64,000 nt of DNA from a virus (taxonomy: Duplodnaviria; Heunggongvirae; Uroviricota; Caudoviricetes), in the IMG/VR virus record IMGVR_UViG_2908567220_000002, positions 33,901-97,900 of that record; one strand, given 5' to 3'. The translations under genes and the position numbers were made by a program. Of the stretch, positions 33,739-49,519 are shown one piece after another. How positions within the stretch are numbered: position 1 is the stretch's first letter; each line of letters starts with the position of its first letter. The notes below the pieces were generated by a model that had not been told where the DNA came from, did no database searches, and was given only the letters and a program-made list of their open reading frames with translations.

Positions 33739-34092
33739 TCAGCGGCGACGGTTAACGGCAGGCGGTACGCCCCGTCCAAGCCAGAGATGACAACTTCCGC
33801 CATCATCCGGCGAAACCCGATCTACCCAGAAATTTTCCTCACCGATGGTCAGCGTGTCTCCACGCCGCAGCTGCCGCACCTCATCAGTCCGGACAAACAG
33901 GGACGGGCTGGAGCCTTCAACGCGCACGCCCTGTCCGGCATAGCTGATATTTTCAGGGTCATCAAAAACACCACGTATCACAGCACCGGACTGCTCACCG
34001 GATGTCATGGTGGCTGACGTTCCCATGTACCCGCGTATCGTTTCATCAGCGCGAGCAATGGCAGCATCGAACAGGTTATCGAAATCAGCCAC
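33739..34092 (-). CDS. FII: Head-tail joining protein FII
   Basis: 117 aa; lambda gpFII-like. Confidence 0.9.
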   Translation of the reverse strand: MADFDNLFDAAIARADETIRGYMGTSATMTSGEQSGAVIRGVFDDPENISYAGQGVRVEGSSPSLFVRTDEVRQLRRGDTLTIGEENFWVDRVSPDDGGSCHLWLGRGVPPAVNRRR

Positions 34093-35966: not shown

Positions 35967-37266
35967 TTACACTGGTGTGTTCAGCAAATCGTTAACGGCA
36001 TCAGATGCCGGGTTACCTGCAGCCAGCGGTGCCGGTGCCCCCTGCATCAGACGATCCAGCGCAGTGTCACTGCGCGCCTGTGCACTCTGTGGTGCTGCGG
36101 CCAGAATGCGGCGGGCCGTTTCCACGGTCATACCGGGGGTTTCTGCCAGCACGCGGGCCTGTTCTTCGCGTCCGTGAGCCTCCTCACAGTTGAGGATCCC
36201 CATAATGCGGCTGTTTTCTGCCGCAACCGCTGCGGTGATCTGCGCGTTCACGTCCGGCTGCGCCGCGCTGGCGTTCTCGCCCTCCGTCGCTGGCACCACG
36301 TCAGTAACGTCAGCCTGCGAAGCAGTGGCTGAAACAGTTGTTGATTGAGTCTCTTTGGTCATTCGCCCTCCTGAGAGACGGGATTTACGTGCATCCAGTG
36401 CATCACGCATGACGGTGATCGCATCGGTACTGTTAACAAGTTCATCAGCCAGTCCGGCATCAATGGCCTCCTGACCGCTGTACACTGCAGCCTCGGTATC
36501 CAGCACAGCCTGCACGGACAGGCCGGTATATGCCGACACCTTCTGTGCAAACATCCGGCGGGTTGCATCCATCCGGGACTGCAGTGTTTCCCGGACATCA
36601 TCCGGTAGATGGCTGTAGGGGTTGCCATCCACCTTATGGCTGCCGCTGTAAATCAGCGTGATTTCCACGCCCTGTTTCTCCAGCGCAGCACCGTAATTAC
36701 TGTGAGCCATCATGACGCCGATGGAGCCTGTCCGGGCGGTCTGCGTGACCAGACGCCGGGAGGCGGCGCTGGCAAGCAGCTGACCTGCACTGCAGTTCAT
36801 GTCGTTGGCCAGCGCCCATACCGGTTTTATGTCTCGCACACGGGCGATGATGTCAGCACAGTCAAATGCTCCCGCCACCATCCCGCCCGGTGTGTCCATA
36901 TCCAGCAGAATGCCGTCCACCATCGGGTCGCTGGCAGCCTGTTGCAGACGGGCGATAATGCCGTTGTAACCGGTCATCCCCGAATACGGCTGCAGCGCCC
37001 GCGTCCGGCTGACCAGCGTGCCGGAAACCGGCAGCACGGCGATGCCGTTCATGACCTGATAACTGCGGGCCTGTCGTGGTCCGTCATCATCACCGGATAA
37101 CGCCAGCGTCGCGGGTGCCTCTCCGGCAGTCAGGCTGTCGCCGGACACCGCATCCGTCAGGCGACTGATCCCAAGCTGGCCTGCAAGCGCACAAAAGAAA
37201 ACCCGCGCATAGGCGGGTTCAAGCATCAGCGGCTCATTAAAAGCCATGCTGGCAATATGCGGGAGA

Positions 37267-37286
<20 letters not shown>
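35967..37286 (-). CDS. C: Head maturation protease C (Nu3 scaffold expected as in-frame internal start)
   Basis: Likely GTG start giving (M)TAELRNLPHIASMAFNEPLML; 439 aa; tracked ORF extends to 37421. Confidence 0.85.
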
Positions 37287-40967
<3,681 letters not shown>

Positions 40968-40993
<26 letters not shown>

Positions 40994-41513
40994 TCAGCAA
41001 CCCCGGTATCAGTTCATCCAGCGCGGCTGCTTTGTTCATGGCTTTGATGATATCCCGTTTCAGGAAATCAACATGTCGGTTTTCCAGTTCCGGAAAACGC
41101 CGCTGTACCGAGAGAGGGATCCCGTCAAGAATACTGGCAATTTCACCTGCGATCCGTGACAGCACGAAAGTACAGAATGCGGTTTCCACCACCTCTGCGG
41201 AGTCTCTGGCATTCTTCAGCTCCTGTGCGTCGGCCTGCGCACGCGTAAGTCGATGGCGTTCGTACTCAATAGTCCCAGGCTGGAGATCTGCCTCACTGGC
41301 AGCCCTGTAATCCACAACCTCTTTACGGAGTTTTTCATTTTCGATATCAGCTTCCCTCTGCGCATACCACTGAATTGCCATGGCGGTATCAAATACAGAT
41401 TCAACGCCCTTACCACCTCCGGAGACGCAAGGGAGTCCCTGAGACTGCCAGCGTTCAATCGTTCGCGGATCCACGTTGAAAATTTCGGCAAGTTTCTTTT
41501 TATTAACCTTCAT
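40968..41513 (-). CDS. Nu1: Terminase small subunit Nu1
   Basis: 181 aa; lambda Nu1-like (…[40 protein letters not shown]…). Confidence 0.9.
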
Positions 41514-41689
41514 GAAACAGTCTCACAATAAATACAGGGGCCGACATGAAAGTGCCCGAAAATGACTTTTTTAGGCGTTTTCATGTCGGACCTTTTACGG
41601 ATTCGATATTAGAAAAAACAAATAGTTATGTTCGAGAAGTACCGACATGATTTTCCCCGGAAAATTTTCATAAATAGCGAAAACCCGCG

Positions 41690-41701
41690 AGGTCGCCGCC
41701 C
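41690..41701 (-). other. cos: cos site: 12-nt cohesive end sequence GGGCGGCGACCT (cosN)
   Basis: Minus-strand GGGGCGGCGACCTCGCGGGTTTTCGCTATTTATGAAAATTTTCC matches the lambda left end. Confidence 0.85.
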
Positions 41702-41924
41702 CGTAACCTGTCGGATCGCCGGAAAGGACCCGCCAACGACTTTCGCGTGCAGGCATTAAAAATTTTGCAGTTCCATGCCTAGTTGAAACCTCGATTTCTA
41801 TAACATCCAATTTTGTAAATTTAGATATAGCTCAACTTTTCCCAATGTTTTCAAGTGTATAAAAACAATTGGCGTTACGCCATAACACTATACTTAGGAT
41901 AAGTAAAGATTTTAAGGAGTTTTA

Positions 41925-42992
41925 ATGAGTCAACATCAATATTACCCACAGCTGAAATGGAAGCCTGCTGAATATGAATCTCTGATGCTTTTAGATCAAA
42001 CTACGCTCTCTGGTTTTACTCCGATCATTACCATTCCAGACATAGACTGGGATTATGAAAACGAATGCTACAAGAAGAGTTTGAGTTCTTACTTATCTGA
42101 CTTCGGTATTAACCTTGCGGCATCCTGGAAAGCCAATCGTCCTGTTTTGCTGGATGTTAAATATTTAGATAAACATGGTTCGAGCCGCCATCATCCTCTA
42201 GATATGTGTATCCAAGATGCTAGAGTAAATGGTAAGGAAATTATCCCTGTTGTCTCTCCCGCATATTCAACAAACTATATACATGCTGTTCAACGCAACT
42301 TAATCAATGGGCTCGCTATATCTATCACCCCCCAGACATGGCACCAATTCACAAGTCTGGTTAACCACTTAAATATTCATCCTAGTTTAATTGATGTAAT
42401 CATTGATTTTGGAGATATTCAAAACGCAACTGATAGTTTAAAACAACAAGCATTAAGCATGGTCAACACATTATCAGGCCAAGCTCCGTGGAGAAACTTG
42501 ATTTTATCTTCAACCGCATACCCTGCATCACAGGCAGGGATACCGCAACATCAAGTTCATCATATTCCGCGCCATGAATACGATCTTTGGATGTATGTAG
42601 TACAGAATTTTAGCAATGGAAGAACGCCAAGTTTTAGTGATTATCCCACCGCTAGCTCTACCATTACGAGCGTAGACCCACGCTTCATGTCTCAGTATGT
42701 CTCAGTGAGATATTCGAACGATACCTCATGGATCTTTGTAAAAGGTACCGCAGTTAAAGGAAATGGATGGGGCCAAACTAAAAACTTATGTACTACCCTT
42801 GTTAGTTCGCCAGAGTATCAAGTCTTTGGCTCCAAATTTAGTTGGGGGGATGATTACATTTACCAAAGATCATTAGGCGCTAACAAATCTGGCGGCTCTA
42901 AAGAATGGCGTAAAGTTGCACATACGCACCATATTACGTTAGTCGTGAGACAGCTTTATTGGTTGGCGCAGACTCAGCCTGCCAAGCCTTAA
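41925..42992 (+). CDS. Hypothetical 355-aa protein, AT-rich cargo gene between lysis cassette and cos
   Basis: AAGGAG SD; no motif I can assign; possibly beta-protein/sce7725-like by size (unverified recollection). Confidence 0.6.
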   Translation: MSQHQYYPQLKWKPAEYESLMLLDQTTLSGFTPIITIPDIDWDYENECYKKSLSSYLSDFGINLAASWKANRPVLLDVKYLDKHGSSRHHPLDMCIQDARVNGKEIIPVVSPAYSTNYIHAVQRNLINGLAISITPQTWHQFTSLVNHLNIHPSLIDVIIDFGDIQNATDSLKQQALSMVNTLSGQAPWRNLILSSTAYPASQAGIPQHQVHHIPRHEYDLWMYVVQNFSNGRTPSFSDYPTASSTITSVDPRFMSQYVSVRYSNDTSWIFVKGTAVKGNGWGQTKNLCTTLVSSPEYQVFGSKFSWGDDYIYQRSLGANKSGGSKEWRKVAHTHHITLVVRQLYWLAQTQPAKP

Positions 42993-43554
42993 CTTTCCAG
43001 CCTACGCGTTTCTTTAAGGCTGTTCTGACTTCAAGCCTGAGATTCGCTATTGGAATATTTTCCGCAATAATATTCCATAACTCAAATCGGGGCTTGCTTT
43101 TGATTCCTTTGGAATAGCCCCATCGTTCAAGTACGTCGATACATTCATCTTTCCAAAGCAATTGAGCGAGCATCAATGAGTTATGGTTTCGATTAAGCTT
43201 TTCTCCACGCATGTGCTTTATAAGAATGGCGCCTTTTGGCCCAACAGAAACCGTTTTAACGCCCCACCAACCTGGGATTAACTTTAATGCTCCCTCAAGA
43301 TGTTTCTCAGCTACGACAAGAGTAACCTTGTCCATTACAGAAGAATAATGCTTGATTTGAAGAGGCAAACGCTCCAAAGAGTCATATTCACTTTTGAGCT
43401 CGTACCCGTGTATAACACCATTTATTACAGCAATGTCTGCTCTACTGGCGCCAAGGGATATGGAAAATTCATCGACCACAAGGCAGTCAGGATCTAAATG
43501 CGATTCTTTCAAAAGCTTATGATGCACCGCGAACCTAACATCTTGATCTTTCAT
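42934..43554 (-). CDS. Hypothetical 206-aa protein with possible PD-(D/E)xK nuclease-like motif; convergent with and overlapping the 355-aa gene by 59 nt
   Basis: AAGGAG SD; ...VVDEF...DIAVINGVIHGYELKS... pattern (D...ExK); AT-rich. Confidence 0.6.
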   Translation of the reverse strand: MKDQDVRFAVHHKLLKESHLDPDCLVVDEFSISLGASRADIAVINGVIHGYELKSEYDSLERLPLQIKHYSSVMDKVTLVVAEKHLEGALKLIPGWWGVKTVSVGPKGAILIKHMRGEKLNRNHNSLMLAQLLWKDECIDVLERWGYSKGIKSKPRFELWNIIAENIPIANLRLEVRTALKKRVGWKVKAWQAESAPTNKAVSRLT

Positions 43555-43902
43555 GACTTCTCCTTACTCCCTCCGTTACTGAATTATAGCGCACTGCATT
43601 TTACTGCATTTGAGAGATTTGACCACTTCAATCACAAAATGCTTATCTGCAGCAACAAGATTCATAGCCATACGACTATGGTGATTACCTTTTGTCTGGA
43701 AAACTGACCATTCCACGAAGATCAGATAGGTCTATAGAATCTTGGTTTGTCATAGCGTTCGCCTTACTTTGAGATGAACCTTTGCTGCATAGGAGATCAG
43801 CCCGTCAAGGCTCACCAGCACTAACTGACTACTCAAAGGCTCATTCCAAAGGGTTTGGTTCGACGTGGTTGAGTGCGCTGCGGTGCGCGGTGAAATACCT
43901 GT

Positions 43903-43934
43903 ACAAAAATGCCCCGCATCTGCGAGGCATTTTC
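43903..43934 (-). terminator. Putative terminator downstream of Rz (end of lysis operon)
   Basis: Imperfect hairpin AAAATGCCTCGC / GCGGGGCATTTT followed by T-rich tract on minus strand. Confidence 0.45.
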
Positions 43935-43970
43935 CTGAAAGTCACTTGTTAAATTTCAGTGAAATTAAAA

Positions 43971-44423
43971 TTATTTTAAGCACTGCGTCCTGATGTACTC
44001 CTGCAAGTAGTTAACCTGCGCGGTTATCTTGTCGATTCCACTTCGGAGACGGTAATAATTGAGTTCAGCATCTGCTGTAAGTCCTGGGCTTTCTCCATTG
44101 CCCATGCCGCTGGCTCCGGTCGTTGACTTTGCACAGGTGGCGGCGACTTGCAGGCGCTTACGCCCAACAGAAACATCAGCACGTAGACTTTCGATAGTCG
44201 CGTTAGCATCAGCAAGCTCCTTTGTGTATCTGGCGTCGAGTTCTGCTACATCACGTTGACGCTTCTGCATGTCAGCGATGATGTACGTGGCTTTATCGCG
44301 CTGTTCTTTATAGGTAATGGCATTATCACGGTAATGATTAACAGCCCATGACAGGCAGACGATGATGCAGATAACCAGAGCATAAATAATCGCGGCGACT
44401 CTGCTCACTGATCTATCCCCCAA
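43971..44423 (-). CDS. Rz: Spanin inner-membrane subunit Rz
   Basis: 150 aa; ...[25 protein letters not shown]... matches lambda Rz. Confidence 0.85.
44024..44215 (-). CDS. Rz1: Spanin outer-membrane lipoprotein Rz1, embedded in Rz in the +1 frame
   Basis: 63 aa with lipobox-like VSAC and proline-rich KSPPPVQ. Confidence 0.7.
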
Positions 44424-44938
44424 CAGGCTAATGCGCTTTCCTGGTCACGACGAATAACCTGTCCATAGCAGTTATTTGAACGTATGCGGCAATCGCGCCC
44501 ACCATCTTTTATCCACCAGCGAATCGCCTCGCATGCACCTTTACGATCACCGGCATTCAGCCGCTTATAAAACGTCGACGGGAAACACTTACCGGGGCCA
44601 ATGTTATAGGGACAGAATGACGCTATACCCGCTTTTTGTGGTTCGGTCAGTGGTACTTTAATATTGCGCTCCACCCATGCCAGCGCCTTATCACGCTCAA
44701 TGGCGTTGACCTGGTCGCATTTTTCCTTCGACAGTTTCATACCGGGAAAAACGGGTTTTCCATCCACCATCGTGGCACCCCGACAGATGGTCCAGATGCC
44801 GGACCCATCGCGGTATGCCGTTGTGTGGTTACCTTCTTTTTCATCCAGAAACTGGTCGAGAATATCAGGCGCGGGCGCACCGACGGCAATCAGTGCCAGA
44901 ACGGCAGCCGACAGGCCGTATCTGATTTTTGCGTTCAT
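44405..44938 (-). CDS. R: SAR endolysin (lysozyme, T4-type glycosidase fold)
   Basis: 177 aa; N-terminal hydrophobic SAR-like [19 protein letters not shown]...RD...WT catalytic pattern. Confidence 0.8.
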
Positions 44939-45001
44939 GGATATTTATCAGGATTTATCGGTTTCTGCCCACGGACAGGTTTATCTGTTCCGGTCAGTGA
45001 C

Positions 45002-45352
45002 TTAAGGTTGTGATTCCGGAGGAGTCTTCAGAGAACCAGTAATTCTTCCCGGTAGCTTTCCTTTGTAGGTTATCCATACATTCTGCGCCTCTAAAATTAC
45101 GGGGCGCTTTTCCGGCGACTGCTCATCCCCTTCACATAACCCGGCAGCAACATCCAGGAAGACCTGTCTGATGCTCATTCTGGCTGCTGCCTCATAAAAC
45201 TCCAGCGCGGCACCTTCAACACGGTCCAGCGAGATGTCCAGGTCAAAAATTTCACCGTCAAAGCGTTTTTTGTCCCGTAACGCTAAAGTTACCGTAACTT
45301 TATTCTCAAAATTGCGGATCCCTTTCACAATCAGTTCATAGTTTTGAGTCAT
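45002..45352 (-). CDS. Hypothetical protein inserted between holin and endolysin genes
   Basis: 116-aa ORF MTQNYELIVKGIRNFENK...; no recognisable motif. Confidence 0.5.
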   Translation of the reverse strand: MTQNYELIVKGIRNFENKVTVTLALRDKKRFDGEIFDLDISLDRVEGAALEFYEAAARMSIRQVFLDVAAGLCEGDEQSPEKRPVILEAQNVWITYKGKLPGRITGSLKTPPESQP

Positions 45353-45356
45353 TGAA

Positions 45357-45572
45357 TTACTCTCCCCGTGCCGCCTTACGCTTGTCTTCTTTAATCTTGA
45401 AATAAAGGTTTGTCAGATACGTCAGCAAGCCAAATACCAGACTACCCAGCACACCTATTGCCGCCCACTGTGAGGGCGTGACTTTATCGAGCAACTGTAA
45501 AAACCAGTACCCGGCACTACCTGCTGAGGTGCCATAGGCGACACCCGTTGTTAACTTATCCATGGATTTCAT
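45357..45572 (-). CDS. S: Pinholin (phage 21 S-type) with dual start motif
   Basis: [31 protein letters not shown]...; tracked ORF extends to 45635. Confidence 0.85.
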
Positions 45573-45639
45573 AACCCCACCTCGCAGATGCGGGTGCTGT
45601 GTAATGGAAATAAAAAGGCCACCTGACGTGGCCACCAGA

Positions 45640-46692
45640 TTATTTCCCCACCAGCTCGTTTATCTCTTTCACTGTCTGGTTAAACCGCTCTGACTCAAGC
45701 TCAACACCTAAGGCCCGACGCCCCAACGCCATTGCTGCTTTTATTGTGGAACCGGATCCCATAAAAAAATCAGCAACCAGATCACCTGGTCGACTACTGG
45801 CATTGATTATTTGCCTGAGCATATCCGCCGGTTTCTCACACGGATGTTTCCCCGGGTAGAACTGAACGGGTTTATGCATCCAGACATCGGTATAAGGCAC
45901 GGAGACTGATACGGAGAAATAGCGCCGGAGAGATTTAAACTCATCCAGCAATTCAGAATATTTACGATTCAGTGAATCATAAGATGCCACCAGCTGGTGG
46001 TGTGGTTGTTCCAGTTGTTGTTCCTGAAACTTCTCTGCCGCTATACGGGAAAACAGTGCCTGTAACTTCCGATAGTCAGCCTCATTCGGCAACTGCCACT
46101 GACTGGCACCAAACCAGTGGGAAACCATATTTTTCTTACCTGTGGCTTCGGCAATTTGTTTTGCCGTTATACCCAGTTCGGCACGAGCATCCCTGAAATA
46201 CGATATCAGCGGTGCCATTATGTGCTGTTTGAGTTCCCTTTCTTTTGCTGCATAGCCGTCACTTTTGCCGCGATATGGCCCCTGGTAATGTTCAGCAAAC
46301 AGAACGCGCTCTGTGGCAGGAAAATATGCGCGCAGACTTTCTTTATTACACCCATTCCAACGTCCGGACGGCTTCGCCCAGATGATATGGTTAAGCACGT
46401 TGAAACGTTCACGCATCATGATCTCAATATCAGATGCCAGGCGATGCCCACAGAACAGGTAAAGGCTTCCGGCAGGTTTTAACACCCGCCAGAACTGGGC
46501 CAGACAGTGGTCCAGCCACTTAAGGTAATCATCGTCGCCCTTCCACTGGTTATCCCAGCCCTCAGGCTTCACTTTAAAGTACGGCGGGTCCGTGACTATC
46601 AGGTCAACAGAATTTTCGGGTAACGACCGGATAAATTCCAGGCAGTCGGCGTTGATTAACTCACAACTGGATATTTTTACAGTATTAAGCAT
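45640..46692 (-). CDS. DNA methyltransferase (N6-adenine/N4-cytosine type, beta-class motif order)
   Basis: 350 aa; DPPY ([11 protein letters not shown]) near N-terminus and FxGxG-like FFMGSGST near C-terminus; between Q and holin. Confidence 0.85.
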
Positions 46693-46831
46693 GGATCATT
46701 AAGCCTGTCTCTGATAGGCTCATTCTGCTTTTGCGCAAAGCAGTGGGCCTGAGGTTTGCTTGTGAACCCAACGCATGAGCAGATGGCTGGTGAGTGCCCC
46801 TAACACCCACCAGCCGCCCATTTACCACAAA

Positions 46832-46857
46832 TAAAAAAAGCCTTCACTGCGGAAGGC
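46832..46857 (-). terminator. Intrinsic terminator overlapping stop of the small ORF
   Basis: Stem GCCTTC / GAAGGC then T7 run on minus strand. Confidence 0.6.
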
Positions 46858-47041
46858 GTCTGTAACAACCGAACTGATAGTCTGCCAGACCCGCCATAAC
46901 CAGCTGGGTCAGTATTAACTGGCAGCGTTCGCGTGAAAGGTAAGTATTCTGCGCAATCTCCCCGACTGTCGCCGGGTCGGTAACGCTTAATTCATTAAAC
47001 ACCACTCTGGCGGTTTCTGTCATATCCTGCTGTTTTAGCAT
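46844..47041 (-). CDS. Small hypothetical protein (65 aa), possibly winged-helix
   Basis: Start MLKQQDMTETARVVFNELSV with AAGGGA SD; tracked ORF 46844..47128. Confidence 0.4.
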   Translation of the reverse strand: MLKQQDMTETARVVFNELSVTDPATVGEIAQNTYLSRERCQLILTQLVMAGLADYQFGCYRRLPQ

Positions 47042-47161
47042 GTCTTTTTCCCTTTTCCGGTTAACGTGACACACCAATAACTCTTGTCGAAAAAGCCAGC
47101 AAGCTGAAAGACAGGTATTCACCGCCACCAGCGCGTTTACTGTACTGACGCGATTTCAGTC

Positions 47162-47186
47162 ATAAAAAACCCGCCAGGCGGCGGGG
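47162..47186 (-). terminator. tR-prime-like intrinsic terminator downstream of the late promoter
   Basis: Perfect stem CCCGCC / GGCGGG, loop GCCT, then TTTTTTATG on minus strand. Confidence 0.65.
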
Positions 47187-47227
47187 TGTAAAAAATCCTC
47201 TAACGTCAGGCATAAAACGCCCATCGT

Positions 47228-47264
47228 TAGAGCAAATTTACCACAGATTCGGGAAAAATCAACA
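47228..47264 (-). promoter_or_regulatory. pR-prime-like late promoter with candidate pause/qut region
   Basis: Minus strand TTGATT-(16/17)-TAAATT followed by ...AACGATGGGC..., resembling lambda pR-prime. Confidence 0.55.
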
Positions 47265-47267
47265 ACA

Positions 47268-48089
47268 CTATCGCGTTACCCTCTTTAACTGCCGCTCCGC
47301 CCATGCCTCTTCAATGTCAAACCGAACCACCAACGTATCGTAAAAGCGTTTCACTGATTTTTTCCACGTATCAAGCGTGATAGCACTCGTCACTTTGCGT
47401 ATGGCATTAAATGCCTCCGTTGATGGTAGTCTTTCACAGCCACGACCATCACAACGCTGGCAGTCTCTGATAACAGGCATACCACGTTTTACCGACTCTT
47501 CACGATGAATGGCGACACCACGCCCACGGCAATCCTTACAGGCGGTGGAAACCTCACCCTTTCCGCCACACTCCGGACAGGCAACTTTTACCACCTCCCT
47601 GACTTTTTTCCATTCTTCCCAGTAAGACGGATACACACCTTTCGTACACTTTGCCCATACCGGCGGCTTACCATCCGGATACTGGACCTTGTTTGTAAAA
47701 ACTATGCTTTCAATAAATTTTTCCCCATAGCAACAAGGGCACTGCTTTTTACTCGCTGCGCTGCGGGCATAATCCTCAAAAGCGTACGAAGCCATAATGC
47801 GCATCACTACCGGTTTTATTTCTGCCGGAAGTTTTCTCAACGCCGCCACACGATCGCACCGACTGAGTGCATAATCTGCCAGTAATTCTGTTGCCCGCGC
47901 CCTGTCATTCATACTGATGCCCATTTTCCCAAGGAACGCAGAAAACCCCATCTCAGCCCGATTCTGTGTCATGCCCTGCGCGGCCATCACATCAGTGATA
48001 CTCAGCGCATCTTTCGACGTTGAGGCCGATGCATCAGTCAGGCCGGGGGATTTTGGGGAGTAGTATTTCGGTAAATCTTCCAGTTTCAT
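47268..48089 (-). CDS. Q: Antiterminator Q (lambda Q family)
   Basis: 273 aa; ...SPKSPGLTD...TDVMAAQGM...; Cys-rich zinc-binding region; overlaps rusA by 4 nt. Confidence 0.85.
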   Translation of the reverse strand: MKLEDLPKYYSPKSPGLTDASASTSKDALSITDVMAAQGMTQNRAEMGFSAFLGKMGISMNDRARATELLADYALSRCDRVAALRKLPAEIKPVVMRIMASYAFEDYARSAASKKQCPCCYGEKFIESIVFTNKVQYPDGKPPVWAKCTKGVYPSYWEEWKKVREVVKVACPECGGKGEVSTACKDCRGRGVAIHREESVKRGMPVIRDCQRCDGRGCERLPSTEAFNAIRKVTSAITLDTWKKSVKRFYDTLVVRFDIEEAWAERQLKRVTR

Positions 48090-48460
48090 TTTTTGACCTG
48101 CTCTTCATGCATTATGGGGTAAATCTTCACCCCCAGACGTCCACCAGATACTGGCTGACCACGAACGATATTGATTTCATCAAACTGCTCATCGTCCATT
48201 AACACTCCCGCATGCGTCAGCGCATCCAGCGGTGCTTTCAGGATATTGTCCAGGTCGCGACGACGCTTATCCGGTGGCTCTGCAATCACCTTTATCGCCA
48301 GCCTTCCGGACAGGCTTAATTTCAGCCGCTGCTGGCGAACAATAAGCGCCACTGCCCGGCGATAACGCTCCCCGGCTTTTGATACAAAATATGTGCTGCC
48401 ACGGCGTCGCCAGTAAGTGTTCACCGTCGGCGGGTAAGGTAAAACCAAATCTATGAGCAT
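48086..48460 (-). CDS. rusA: Holliday junction resolvase RusA
   Basis: 124 aa; paralog of 517..867. Confidence 0.9.
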   Translation of the reverse strand: MLIDLVLPYPPTVNTYWRRRGSTYFVSKAGERYRRAVALIVRQQRLKLSLSGRLAIKVIAEPPDKRRRDLDNILKAPLDALTHAGVLMDDEQFDEINIVRGQPVSGGRLGVKIYPIMHEEQVKK

Positions 48461-48472
48461 CAGTCACCTCTT

Positions 48473-49519
48473 TTACCCAAGCACGCCAGTTGCAAAGGCG
48501 TGATCAAGAAAACGAAAAATTAAATCAACCTGAGAACCATGCTTTTCTTCGAACGCCAGAGGATCCGCATGAAGCTCGTTGTGATGCTCCCGACACAGCG
48601 GTAGCGTGAAAATATCGTGAGATTTTGTCCCCATTCCGCCCTGACCATGACCAATCAGGTGATGGGGATCGTCGGCTGGCTTACCACAACACGCACACGG
48701 CTGTGTCTTCACCCAGCGTGTGTATTTCTCGTTAACCCAGCGGCGACGTTTAGGTCGTTTCATGAAAGATTCCGGAGACTCAGGATCAACGGCAATGCTG
48801 ACCACCGTCTCTTCCTGTGGCGGGTTTTGCTGGTGGGCGTGAGGCAGCGGCGCAAGATTTTTTGTGCGCTGCTTCAGTATGCTGGTGGCGGTCTGCTCTC
48901 CCGGTACGATGTCGCTTTCACGGTACATTGAGCGGATTTTTTCCGCACGCAACCCCAGCGAACGACGTAATACCGCTTCCGGTAGCGCGTCCGCCACCTG
49001 ATTGCGGACCGCCCACCAGGATAATTCAGCCAGAGATAATTCACGCTCCTGCGTACCGCTTATTGCGTGACCGATGACGTCAATCATCCATGCTGACAGG
49101 TTTTGATGAGCAAGTTGCTCGAGTGATTCGGATGTCTGGTCACGCAGCTGGTTGTCGCAGTGCCAGCACAACACCATTGCGCCGGTACCATAACGGTGAA
49201 TAACGGTTTCGCTGTGATGATAATCGCCGTGTGGCCACTGGCAGGATTTAATATTGCGCAACAGCCAGTCAGACAATGCACCAGCACCACCAGCAGCACG
49301 AATTACCCGTGCGTTACTGAAAAACGGCAGCAATGTTTTGTCTTCCACCAGCGGCTGGCGAACGGCAGGAACGACCCCGGACGGCAGATTACGCATGCTT
49401 TTCGGTTCCGGCTCCACCAGTACCCGGGTATTGTGGAATACCGGCATGGATTCACGGCCCGGCTTAACGATCACCAGCCCGAGTTCCGGTACCAGAACAG
49501 GTCGAAGTAATACCCGCAC
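48473..49519 (-). CDS. DUF968-family protein (YdfU-like) with HNH-like motif
   Basis: 348 aa; paralog of 880..1929. Confidence 0.8.
   Translation of the reverse strand: MRVLLRPVLVPELGLVIVKPGRESMPVFHNTRVLVEPEPKSMRNLPSGVVPAVRQPLVEDKTLLPFFSNARVIRAAGGAGALSDWLLRNIKSCQWPHGDYHHSETVIHRYGTGAMVLCWHCDNQLRDQTSESLEQLAHQNLSAWMIDVIGHAISGTQERELSLAELSWWAVRNQVADALPEAVLRRSLGLRAEKIRSMYRESDIVPGEQTATSILKQRTKNLAPLPHAHQQNPPQEETVVSIAVDPESPESFMKRPKRRRWVNEKYTRWVKTQPCACCGKPADDPHHLIGHGQGGMGTKSHDIFTLPLCREHHNELHADPLAFEEKHGSQVDLIFRFLDHAFATGVLG

Follow-up and report, generated by a model that had tools for sequence, protein, structure and literature searches.

Two validated E. coli defence systems, gop-beta-cII of satellite P4 (Rst_gop_beta_cll in DefenseFinder and PADLOC) and PD-Lambda-2, have a beta-family protein in common. 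The three-gene gop-beta-cII system protects against lambda and P1, its gop and beta genes show toxin-antitoxin-like behaviour, and Gop is reported to be toxic (Rousset et al., 2022, PMC9122126). The system is triggered by phage orf184, and this leads to cell killing (bioRxiv 10.1101/2023.04.06.535777). PD-Lambda-2 gives phage protection, a relative of beta forms its component C, and its toxic component is B (Vassallo et al., 2022, PMC9519451). In P4, gop and beta are on the plus strand, with gop immediately upstream of beta and co-transcribed with it, and cII is on the minus strand, facing beta. PD-Lambda-2 consists of beta-family component C together with A (HigB-like) and B (Xre HTH and M78 peptidase), and as defined it has no nuclease gene. 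In one survey, Rst_gop_beta_cll was found in Proteobacteria only.

Here we analyse a stretch of 64,000 nucleotides (positions 33,901 to 97,900 of IMG/VR record IMGVR_UViG_2908567220_000002, hereafter the window), in which a lambda-like (lambdoid) E. coli prophage carries two genes related to these systems. The pair shares beta (PF14350; 355 aa in both) and cII (sce7726 / PF26915) with P4, and as in P4 the two genes are convergent and are carried by an E. coli temperate element as cargo next to cos. The proteins share little identity with their P4 counterparts, 22% for beta (BLASTP E = 3e-7) and 26% for cII (BLASTP E = 4e-19), and the cII-like protein has 206 aa compared with 264 aa in P4. The carrier is a lambdoid prophage instead of a P4-like satellite, and in place of P4's 27-nt gap and annotated terminator there is a 59-nt overlap of the 3' ends. 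In contrast to P4, gop is missing from the prophage insert. With P4 Gop as jackhmmer query, the full ORF sets of window positions 36001-49000 and of 92 loci gave no match outside P4 itself, and the region upstream of beta (41740-41924) holds no ORF and no gop homologue (ORF listing; jackhmmer). Because its members belong to the beta and sce7726/P4-cII families, the pair is, on sequence evidence, the core of P4 gop-beta-cII without gop, made up of distant relatives of the P4 genes. The original prediction had presented the pair as a candidate defence or toxin-regulator module. Its homologues belong to a known system, P4 gop-beta-cII, and the novelty is lower than claimed. The defence part of the proposal is backed indirectly, through homology, by relatives in gop-beta-cII and PD-Lambda-2, but gop and the A and B genes of PD-Lambda-2 are missing.

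We consider it slightly better than an even bet that this cargo cassette is a gop-less gop-beta-cII core that gives anti-phage protection, with the nuclease as effector and the two genes coupled through their convergent overlap. Going by homology, the most likely function would be to shield the lysogen from other phages, through abortive infection or in a toxin-like manner. The toxic parts of the known systems, P4 Gop and PD-Lambda-2 B, are both absent from the insert, which speaks against this explanation. The low identity to the P4 proteins, the generic fold matches of beta, and the unstructured overlap with its unconserved tails, all described below or above, count against it too.

A cargo cassette beside cos

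The pair lies within an insert of approximately 2.0 kb between cos and an rha remnant. The features of the region, in window coordinates, are:

39068-40993, minus strand: A terminase gene
40968-41513, minus strand: Nu1 terminase gene
41690-41701: cosN (AGGTCGCCGCCC)
41740..43749 (boundaries approximate), no strand: low-GC cargo insert (moron) with the whole cassette inside, delimited by homology breaks, GC and interval comparison
41800..41924, plus strand: upstream region of the beta gene with the conserved block TTAGAT..TAGCTCAA..TATAAA (41858-41863), a putative promoter of its own
41925..42992, plus strand: gene of the beta family (355 aa), product predicted to fold into a (beta/alpha)8 TIM barrel and long C-terminal helix
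42934..42992, no strand: antisense overlap of both 3' ends, 59 nt, encoding beta residues 337-355 and the nuclease tail, residues 188-206
42934..43554, minus strand: cII-like / sce7726-family gene, 206 aa, predicted PD-(D/E)xK domain (residues 1-120) and helical C-terminal domain
43555..43650, minus strand: upstream region of the cII-like gene, from the promoter scan and a block conserved in six Enterobacterales loci
43905-43934, minus strand: lysis-operon terminator hairpin (dG -22.6 kcal/mol, z = -5.3)
43971-44423, minus strand: Rz
44405-44938, minus strand: endolysin

Homology to three other E. coli prophages stops at 41736-41739 and is back at 43750, and the GC content is 0.37-0.44 over the gene pair versus 0.50-0.55 in the flanks. 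The ORF listing and the sequence confirm the arrangement described at the outset, with one ORF on each strand, the two facing each other and their 3' ends overlapping by 59 nt. Equally in line with the first description, the pair is AT-rich and sits between the lysis-operon terminator and cosN, as given by the coordinates and the hairpin, and each gene has an AAGGAG Shine-Dalgarno sequence 5 nt before its ATG (at 41914-41919 for beta, and as the complement of 43560-43565 for the cII-like gene). The Rz-cos interval had been named as a moron site, and it is indeed a variable cargo site that in other E. coli prophages holds iss/bor, rha, ylcI, DUF1398 or a TonB-like gene. The insert is horizontally acquired cargo in this cos-proximal site.

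The block upstream of beta is kept in six Enterobacterales loci with differing genomic contexts. Upstream of the cII-like gene we find TATAAT (43588-43583), a promoter-like pair TGGTCA/TAAAAT (43625-43620 / 43603-43598) and two copies of the direct repeat ATGCAGT (43610-43604 and 43599-43593). A promoter and terminator scan returned fewer promoter-like sites than in shuffled sequence and few terminator-like sites, near the shuffled expectation; this simple scan missed the real lysis-operon terminator, which was confirmed separately. Across 41000-44500, Rfam at a permissive E-value gave just two chance microRNA-like matches, both in the cosB palindrome, and a repeat search returned nothing beyond repeats of the cosB type and short pairs attributable to chance.

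Relative to the late genes, the cassette is oriented alike in Klebsiella and Yersinia lambdoid prophages, with the nuclease gene co-oriented with the late operon there and in E. coli. This orientation would fit a part in the life cycle of the phage itself, for instance as a factor for lysogeny or regulation or in late-expressed DNA processing or counter-defence, as would the name 'regulatory protein', which some databases give the nuclease-gene product, and the P4 gene name 'cII', which comes from a clear-plaque phenotype. We regard such a part as very improbable, given that the cassette is present in 126 of 5426 complete genomes compared with flank matches in 5190, and most related prophages with the same flanks are without it. 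The pair also occurs away from phages, in phyla that include CPR bacteria, and a pure DNA-binding regulator would have no need of the invariant catalytic motif described below.

A predicted TIM barrel and a predicted nuclease

The 355-aa protein matches Pfam Beta_protein (PF14350) over its full length with E = 8e-56 and 190 bits (cut-off 27), and its match to PADLOC PD-Lambda-2_C (4.4e-32) is limited to residues 141-344. It is confidently predicted to be a (beta/alpha)8 TIM barrel. Near-invariant polar residues, including E16, D77, R133, D161, R216 and D239, are placed at or just past the C-terminal ends of the predicted strands, and the near-invariant H335/H336 are on the C-terminal helix. 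No activity can be assigned to beta, because fold comparison matches generic TIM barrels only, and no protein of solved structure emerged as its relative from a profile search of PDB sequences.

For the 206-aa protein, the NCBIfam model NF033832 (sce7726) scores 183.7 bits (cut-off 70), and PADLOC cll matches at 3e-31. PGAP names an identical protein 'sce7726 family protein', and close homologues carry PF26915 (Phage_P4_cII). A D...ExK-like pattern had been noticed in this protein from the letters, and it holds up: E29, D40, E52 and K54 (E...D...E-x-K) are invariant in 56 homologues, P4 cII among them, and the protein is predicted to be a PD-(D/E)xK nuclease with an alpha-beta-beta-beta-alpha-beta core and an intact catalytic motif. 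The same predicted core fold and the same E...D...ExK constellation are found in MmcB-like / PD-(D/E)xK nucleases (PDB 3dnx SPO1766, NucS and the Can2 nuclease domain). Unlike these, the 206-aa protein has an additional helical C-terminal domain, is obligately partnered with a TIM-barrel gene and has no sequence-level match to any solved structure; the profile search of PDB sequences found no solved relative.

The tentative comparison with 'beta protein / sce7725-sce7726' pairs proved right for Beta_protein and for sce7726 and wrong for sce7725, whose NCBIfam model the 355-aa protein does not match. Identification of the 355-aa protein as sce7725 was rejected, as its sole NCBIfam match at E <= 1 is a spurious one to ndhI, and eight other beta proteins are likewise without an NCBIfam match.

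Structure comparison places the predicted nuclease fold close to the restriction and repair endonucleases SdaI, PaqCI, NucS and MmcB-like proteins. This resemblance would suit a restriction-modification (R-M)-like pair in which the TIM-barrel protein would be the modifying enzyme, acting on DNA, RNA or a nucleotide of the cell, and the nuclease would attack nucleic acid left unmodified. A promoter block for each gene and the presence of some loci amid R-M genes would suit it too, and R-M systems often have their genes in convergent order. Independent promoters on convergent genes let protection build up ahead of the nuclease, as is seen in many type II R-M systems. However, the transglycosylase and DpdA matches of beta do not stand out in score from dozens of unrelated TIM barrels, and the reported phenotypes of relatives are toxin-antitoxin-like or abortive-infection-like and not restriction. 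We therefore find an R-M-like pair improbable.

A conserved pair in many phyla

We surveyed 77 independent species-level genome loci from many phyla, with P4 as a reference outside the sample. The beta and nuclease genes are convergent in all 77 loci, and among viral contigs sampled via beta a convergent cII-like gene is present in 55/55 loci with enough downstream sequence. Co-directional or divergent arrangements were absent from more than 130 loci in many phyla. The beta proteins of the surveyed loci have diverged down to approximately 30% identity, and the pairwise divergences of beta and nuclease are correlated (r = 0.86, a value reached by 0 of 2000 permutations). The pair extends well outside Proteobacteria. 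In 49 of the 77 loci, the first 60 nt upstream of beta contain no gene running in its direction, and these stand-alone pairs far outnumber the loci with PD-Lambda-2 A/B-type genes (17/77). Gop was seen in the P4 reference only and in none of the sampled loci. This suggests that the conserved unit is the pair of beta and PD-(D/E)xK nuclease and not a three-gene system, and the pair thus offers a minimal construct for mechanism work. Defence-finder rules probably demand gop, and such rules would miss most beta/cII loci.

The flanks of the surveyed loci contain mobile-element genes and scattered defence genes, and some loci lie among R-M genes. Among 109 flanking proteins, no family is represented more than 3 times. 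The pair is always on or beside mobile elements (integrases, recombinases, and prophage and satellite cargo sites), and its two genes are tightly co-inherited. Both observations, together with the toxin-antitoxin behaviour of gop/beta (PMC9122126), would be expected of a module for addiction or stabilisation, which would hold the prophage or another mobile element in the cell and would not act against phages. We give this a low probability, as related systems confer measurable phage protection, post-segregational killing is of little use to a chromosomal lambdoid prophage, and both proteins are large, conserved and enzyme-like, unlike a typical labile antitoxin. The pair also falls outside the classical type II toxin-antitoxin class, which has two small genes in one transcript and an antitoxin that acts as a DNA-binding autorepressor, in that its genes are convergent, its proteins have 355 and 206 aa and neither has an antitoxin-type domain.

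The preferred reading, anti-phage protection, would have the following mechanism. The cassette is self-contained, with a separate promoter-like block upstream of each gene. The nuclease would be the effector, and beta would be its partner, either restraining it or sensing infection. The convergent layout with zero spacer, in which the 3' ends overlap for want of a spacer, probably couples expression of the two genes through antisense pairing or transcriptional interference. In the prophage, the nuclease gene is sense and beta antisense relative to Q-antiterminated late transcription. As to restraint by beta, P4 without beta reportedly kills solely when gop is present (a finding ascribed to Ghisotti et al., 1990), which argues against P4 cII being a strong toxin held in check by beta.

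The 3' overlap

The genes overlap at their 3' ends in 75/77 loci, with a median of 47 nt and a range of 4 to 110 nt, and 73/77 loci have one common antisense phase. A few relatives have a spacer instead (27 nt in P4, 4 nt in a Vibrio, and 14 and 39 nt in others) and are still convergent. The length of 59 nt is that of the E. coli allele. In the closest relatives the overlap is 11 nt, and its greater length in E. coli is due to loss of a stop codon (TAG to TGG). We considered the overlap as an E. coli quirk, given closest relatives with just 4-11 nt, and rejected this, as the overlap is general in the wider survey and only the 59-nt length is local. The 19-residue nuclease tail that was added (188-206) is predicted to be disordered (pLDDT below 50) and is non-conserved, and the sequence of the overlapping tails is not conserved across relatives. 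From a rough estimate, overlaps of these lengths would be consistent with a nuclease frame that is read on until a first stop codon occurs by chance. When the overlap and the sequence around it were folded as RNA, z-scores against shuffled controls were -0.6 to +0.8 on both strands, and neither the overlap nor its surroundings therefore contain a terminator or structured element.

Convergent transcripts that overlap at their 3' ends are known from type I toxin-antitoxin loci such as txpA/RatA and bsrG/SR4 of Bacillus. As in these loci and in convergent type II R-M systems, two convergent units have 3' ends that must overlap, and antisense control could follow. The layout of the DNA forces the transcripts to overlap, barring a transcription stop inside the partner gene. 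In contrast to type I loci, both partners of the E. coli pair are sizeable conserved proteins and neither is a small RNA, and in contrast to both classes the overlap has no structured element.

Whether the overlap regulates anything bears on the coupling that we propose. It is fairly plausible, at somewhat less than an even chance, that the overlap has no regulatory role and is a by-product of spacerless packing (in E. coli, of the stop loss), with convergence a frozen accident that is retained because rearranging overlapping genes would break them. The stop loss accounts for 59 nt versus 11 nt, the added tail is disordered and non-conserved, the length varies from one locus to another, neither strand has a folding z-score far from 0, and some relatives have small gaps. 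The fixed phase would also be automatic once an overlap has arisen, since only in-frame indels are tolerated. A frozen accident is harder to reconcile with the complete absence of other arrangements in more than 130 loci despite beta proteins at approximately 30% identity, with the convergence of loci that have a spacer, and with the separate conserved upstream block kept by each gene. Such a tail-to-tail overlap of protein-coding genes is rare and deeply conserved, and antisense control through it is directly testable.

Relation to PD-Lambda-2

Component C of PD-Lambda-2 is a beta-family protein, as is the 355-aa protein, but neither component A nor component B is in the E. coli insert. The ORF listing shows no HigB-like ORF and no Xre-M78 ORF there, and the PADLOC matches are C, beta and cll only. 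Elsewhere the two gene sets meet. With an HMM for component B built for the survey, PD-Lambda-2_B was found directly upstream of beta in 17/77 loci, a tally that covers other loci and not the E. coli window, although the ORFs of the window were in the searched set, and PD-Lambda-2_A lies farther upstream in 7 of the 10 of these that were checked. A/B pairs without beta also exist. These loci lead to the prediction that an unrecognised nuclease partner stands beside PD-Lambda-2-type operons. The published PD-Lambda-2 clone ends 396 nt past the stop of gene C, so any cII-like gene at that position would probably be cut short and beta apparently can take part in defence without it, a further point against the nuclease as effector.

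A wider reading of these relations, which we consider unlikely as a whole, is that the two genes beta and cII form an autonomous module of ancient origin for immunity (or conflict), found across phyla, with the obligatory antisense 3' overlap as its switch. Collision or base pairing of the convergent transcripts would then determine the balance between TIM barrel and nuclease, and infection or late phage transcription could tip it. Under the same doubtful reading, gop-beta-cII, PD-Lambda-2 and the myxobacterial caspase-domain versions would be elaborations that add toxins to the core, and the nuclease would be a fourth gene that PD-Lambda-2 normally has and that has been overlooked.

In myxobacterial loci a caspase-domain gene lies upstream of cII. 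The large genes at this position were considered as sce7725 and rejected, as they encode caspase-domain proteins.

Results and discussion

A convergent pair of ORFs of 355 and 206 aa, overlapping by 59 nt and each preceded by AAGGAG, had been proposed between the lysis-operon terminator and cosN. Both the ORF listing and direct reading of the sequence agree with this, with AAGGAG lying 5 nt 5' of the ATG in both genes, and the terminator is present on the minus strand. GC content is 0.37–0.44 over the pair and 0.50–0.55 in both flanks, and the surrounding lambda-like prophage has its genes on the minus strand.

The pair and its surroundings (window coordinates)
39068–40993, minus: terminase A
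40968–41513, minus: Nu1
41690–41701: cosN, AGGTCGCCGCCC
41925–42992, plus: beta-family ORF, 355 aa
42934–42992, both: 59-nt shared 3' segment of the convergent ORFs
42934–43554, minus: cII-like/sce7726 ORF, 206 aa
43905–43934, minus: lysis-operon terminator, strong hairpin then U5 (dG -22.6 kcal/mol, z = -5.3)
43971–44423, minus: Rz
44405–44938, minus: endolysin

The 355-aa protein is a full-length match to Pfam Beta_protein (E = 8e-56) and also hits PADLOC PD-Lambda-2_C (4e-32) and 'beta' (3.5e-10), and phrog_9159. Hits of the 206-aa protein are NCBIfam sce7726_fam (183.7 bits, cut-off 70), PADLOC 'cll' (3e-31) and phrog_984, and PF26915 (Phage_P4_cII, a newer Pfam family) is present in its homologues. 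Two names tentatively put forward in the original prediction, 'beta protein' and 'sce7726', were right by Pfam and NCBIfam; the third, 'sce7725', was wrong and was rejected as the identity of the 355-aa protein, as no beta protein matches the NCBIfam model so named.

In the predicted structure of the 206-aa protein (pLDDT 89.4, pTM 0.84) disorder is confined to residues 188–206, and E29, D40, E52 and K54 are invariant across 56 homologues including P4 cII, as are R38, N45, G46, S55, D58, R62 and Q66. The nuclease-like pattern noticed earlier is thereby matched by a predicted fold and an invariant motif, the level at which the nuclease assignment is well supported. The 355-aa protein is modelled (pLDDT 97.3, pTM 0.94) as a (beta/alpha)8 barrel with a long C-terminal helix that bears H335/H336. 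TIM-barrel active sites are located at the C-terminal ends of strands, and the near-invariant polar residues E16, D77, R133, D161, R216 and D239 lie at or just past these ends in the model, a placement that would fit an enzyme or a ligand-binding protein. Sequence search detected no solved relative for either family. The two conserved proteins are probably enzymatic.

One genome per species was searched with the nuclease and the best 80 loci were taken, which come from Proteobacteria, Firmicutes, Bacteroidota, Myxococcota, Chloroflexi, Elusimicrobiota, Omnitrophota, Spirochaetes, Gemmatimonadetes, Melainabacteria-type and CPR lineages. Of these, 77 have room for a partner, and in every one a beta-family gene faces the nuclease gene convergently; the 3' ends overlap in 75 (median 47 nt, range 4–110), and in 73 the length of the overlap is 2 mod 3, one fixed antisense phase. 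The four phase exceptions are two 4-nt overlaps and two gapped loci, as expected if the phase could drift only after the overlap was lost or nearly so. Searching viral contigs with beta gave 55 loci, with a convergent nuclease gene in every one that had enough downstream sequence. Pairwise divergences of beta and nuclease are correlated (r = 0.86, reached by 0 of 2,000 permutations), and the pair has been passed on as a unit.

The closest relatives, from Klebsiella, Providencia, Edwardsiella and Pectobacterium, have 3' ends that share 11 nt. Their TAG stop reads TGG in E. coli, so the nuclease frame runs 16 codons further, to the TAA at 42934–42936; the residues gained in this way are those modelled as disordered. 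Neither protein's overlapping tail shows sequence conservation over the family, and RNA folding of the overlap region is no better than that of shuffled sequence. The conserved trait is zero-spacer, tail-to-tail packing, not the overlapping sequence. Incidental overlap is a rival explanation. An autonomous ancient module that uses the antisense overlap as a switch is unlikely.

By sequence homology the pair has relatives among the components of two defence systems that have been validated, gop-beta-cII of satellite phage P4 and PD-Lambda-2. The P4 layout is gop (plus, 133 aa), beta (plus, 355 aa) and cII (minus, 264 aa), in which beta and cII are convergent like the window pair but separated by a 27-nt gap with an annotated terminator. 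The window cassette differs in lacking gop, in its lambdoid prophage carrier and in its 22–26% identity, low but significant for both beta (22%, E = 3e-7) and cII (26%, E = 4e-19). In the P4 cargo hotspot gop-beta-cII protects against lambda and P1, and gop/beta is regarded as a toxin-antitoxin pair (Rousset et al., citing Ghisotti et al. 1990; PMC9122126); according to a preprint, phage orf184 sets off cell death via gop-beta-cII (bioRxiv 10.1101/2023.04.06.535777). In PD-Lambda-2 the HigB-like A neutralises the toxic B, an Xre-peptidase fusion, and C, 'related to a P4 phage antitoxin', is required for defence (Vassallo et al., PMC9519451).

Stand-alone pairs, in which beta has no upstream neighbour of the same direction within 60 nt, account for 49 of the 77 loci, and the window pair is of this kind. 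A PD-Lambda-2_B-type Xre-M78 peptidase gene lies in that upstream position in 17, with a PD-Lambda-2_A HigB-like gene further upstream in 7 of 10 B-type loci checked; other small genes (8/77) or a contig end (3/77) make up the rest. Searched for in the loci, gop was found in P4 only. HigB/Xre-M78 pairs were also found without beta, and the one such sample with beta had the nuclease gene as well. The simplest reading is a core of beta and nuclease that has been extended in some loci by gop, by A/B or by caspase-like genes.

Complete PD-Lambda-2-type A-B-C operons occur in the surveyed loci L053, L064, L068, L075, L076, L087 and L089 (e.g. L075 1185–4299, locus numbering), each followed by an sce7726/cII-like nuclease gene that is convergent and overlaps at the 3' end; this fourth gene is not among the three of the published definition. 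The published clone (ECOR42, QOYB01000002 228989–232396) ends 396 nt past the gene C stop and probably truncates the nuclease gene, if ECOR42 has one. Another accessory kind is seen in myxobacterial L044 2784–4331, L045 3096–4955 and L070 3054–4931, where a gene for a caspase-domain protein (516–626 aa) lies 42–66 nt upstream of the cII-like gene and co-directional with it. None of the families represented by the other 109 flanking proteins occurs more than three times; the genes concerned are those of mobile elements and scattered defence genes.

The pairing is obligate, with co-inheritance; the pair is placed on mobile elements, and the nuclease motif is intact. Together with the homology to defence components, this leads us to lean towards a defence cassette, which would shield the lysogen from other phages. 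The nuclease would be the effector, beta would hold it back or sense infection, and convergent overlapping transcription would set the balance between them. This joint assignment of effector and controller is tentative: the toxic partner neutralised by beta in P4 is Gop, not cII, and PD-Lambda-2 seems functional without the nuclease, so beta could serve generally in sensing or regulation and the nuclease do something else. An addiction module, an unlikely rival to the defence cassette, would suit the toxin-antitoxin view of gop/beta. The kind of system is not new, since both families are named and have relatives in defence databases. The literature searched contained no paper on the two-gene form or on sce7726 function; new relative to it are that the conserved unit is a pair, not a triple, that the pair spans many phyla (one survey found Rst_gop_beta_cll, the database form of the P4 system, in Proteobacteria only), and that a convergent nuclease gene often accompanies PD-Lambda-2-type operons.

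Lambdoid prophages of Klebsiella and Yersinia likewise carry the cassette after the lysis genes, in an unchanged orientation. A Yersinia intermedia prophage (L007/L008 4357–7318) has it within the lysis cassette, flanked by the endolysin gene and an Rz-like (DUF2570/LysC) gene, not after it. Vibrio and Providencia cassettes adjoin integrases, in Providencia also restriction-modification genes; restriction-modification-like logic, a further and unlikely rival, would match that neighbourhood. The Providencia locus (L003 3704–8559) is a small, defence-island-like island with an integrase, a PDDEXK_4 protein and an MvaI/BcnI-type restriction-modification pair.

The blocks upstream of beta and of the nuclease gene are each conserved in six Enterobacterales loci of differing context.

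Expression signals (window coordinates)
41858–41863, plus: TATAAA of the beta upstream block TTAGAT..TAGCTCAA..TATAAA
43588–43583, minus: perfect TATAAT of the nuclease gene, with a TGGTCA/TAAAAT pair, promoter-like
43593–43610, minus: direct heptamer repeat ATGCAGT x2, 11 nt apart, overlapping the nuclease-gene promoter-like hexamers

The ATGCAGT repeat, partly kept in five other Enterobacterales loci, could be an operator. The cassette lies within the prophage late transcription unit, between the lysis genes and cos, so Q-antiterminated transcription would, on the lambda paradigm, read the nuclease in sense and beta in antisense. A phage life-cycle function is an unlikely rival that would accord with this late position, and the non-phage neighbourhoods of other copies sit less easily with it. 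In the beta leader, the E. coli version has a perfect palindrome, TGGCGTTACGCCA, at 41870–41882 that the Klebsiella and Edwardsiella versions lack; a terminator-like T-rich run follows it on the minus strand, so it might end antisense or late read-through immediately beyond beta.

Of 5,426 complete E. coli genomes, 126 carry an identical or almost identical copy of the 2.27-kb segment, and PGAP names its products there 'beta family protein' and 'sce7726 family protein'. Prophages sharing the Nu1 and Rz flanks carry different cargo in the same interval: ylcI and full-length rha, iss (a bor homologue) and a TonB-like gene, or ylcI and DUF1398. Homology to them ends at 41736–41739 and starts again at 43750, which delimits an insert of about 41740–43749; such swapped cargo and homology breaks bear out the proposed moron hotspot between Rz and cos. 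The first ~24 codons of rha (Rha family regulator) remain at 43750–43822 (minus), and this remnant with its upstream region (43750–43970) shares 87.6% identity with P22 rha DNA and 93% with an E. coli prophage that has the full gene. By this comparison the cassette took the place of most of an rha gene. In the best-matching genome (NZ_AP022105.1, L001 279–3169), an exact match to the window region, the annotation gives both the portal gene and the S49 protease gene as frameshifted pseudogenes, so this copy of the prophage may be defective.

Further prophage cargo is a 350-aa DNA methyltransferase gene at 45640–46692 (minus), which in the late region separates the Q region from the holin gene. 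In the Nu1–cosN interval, CCGACATGA-type repeated elements and a 30-nt imperfect palindrome at 41533–41663 are probably cosB terminase-binding (R) sites; these repeats also give two chance microRNA-like matches in Rfam.
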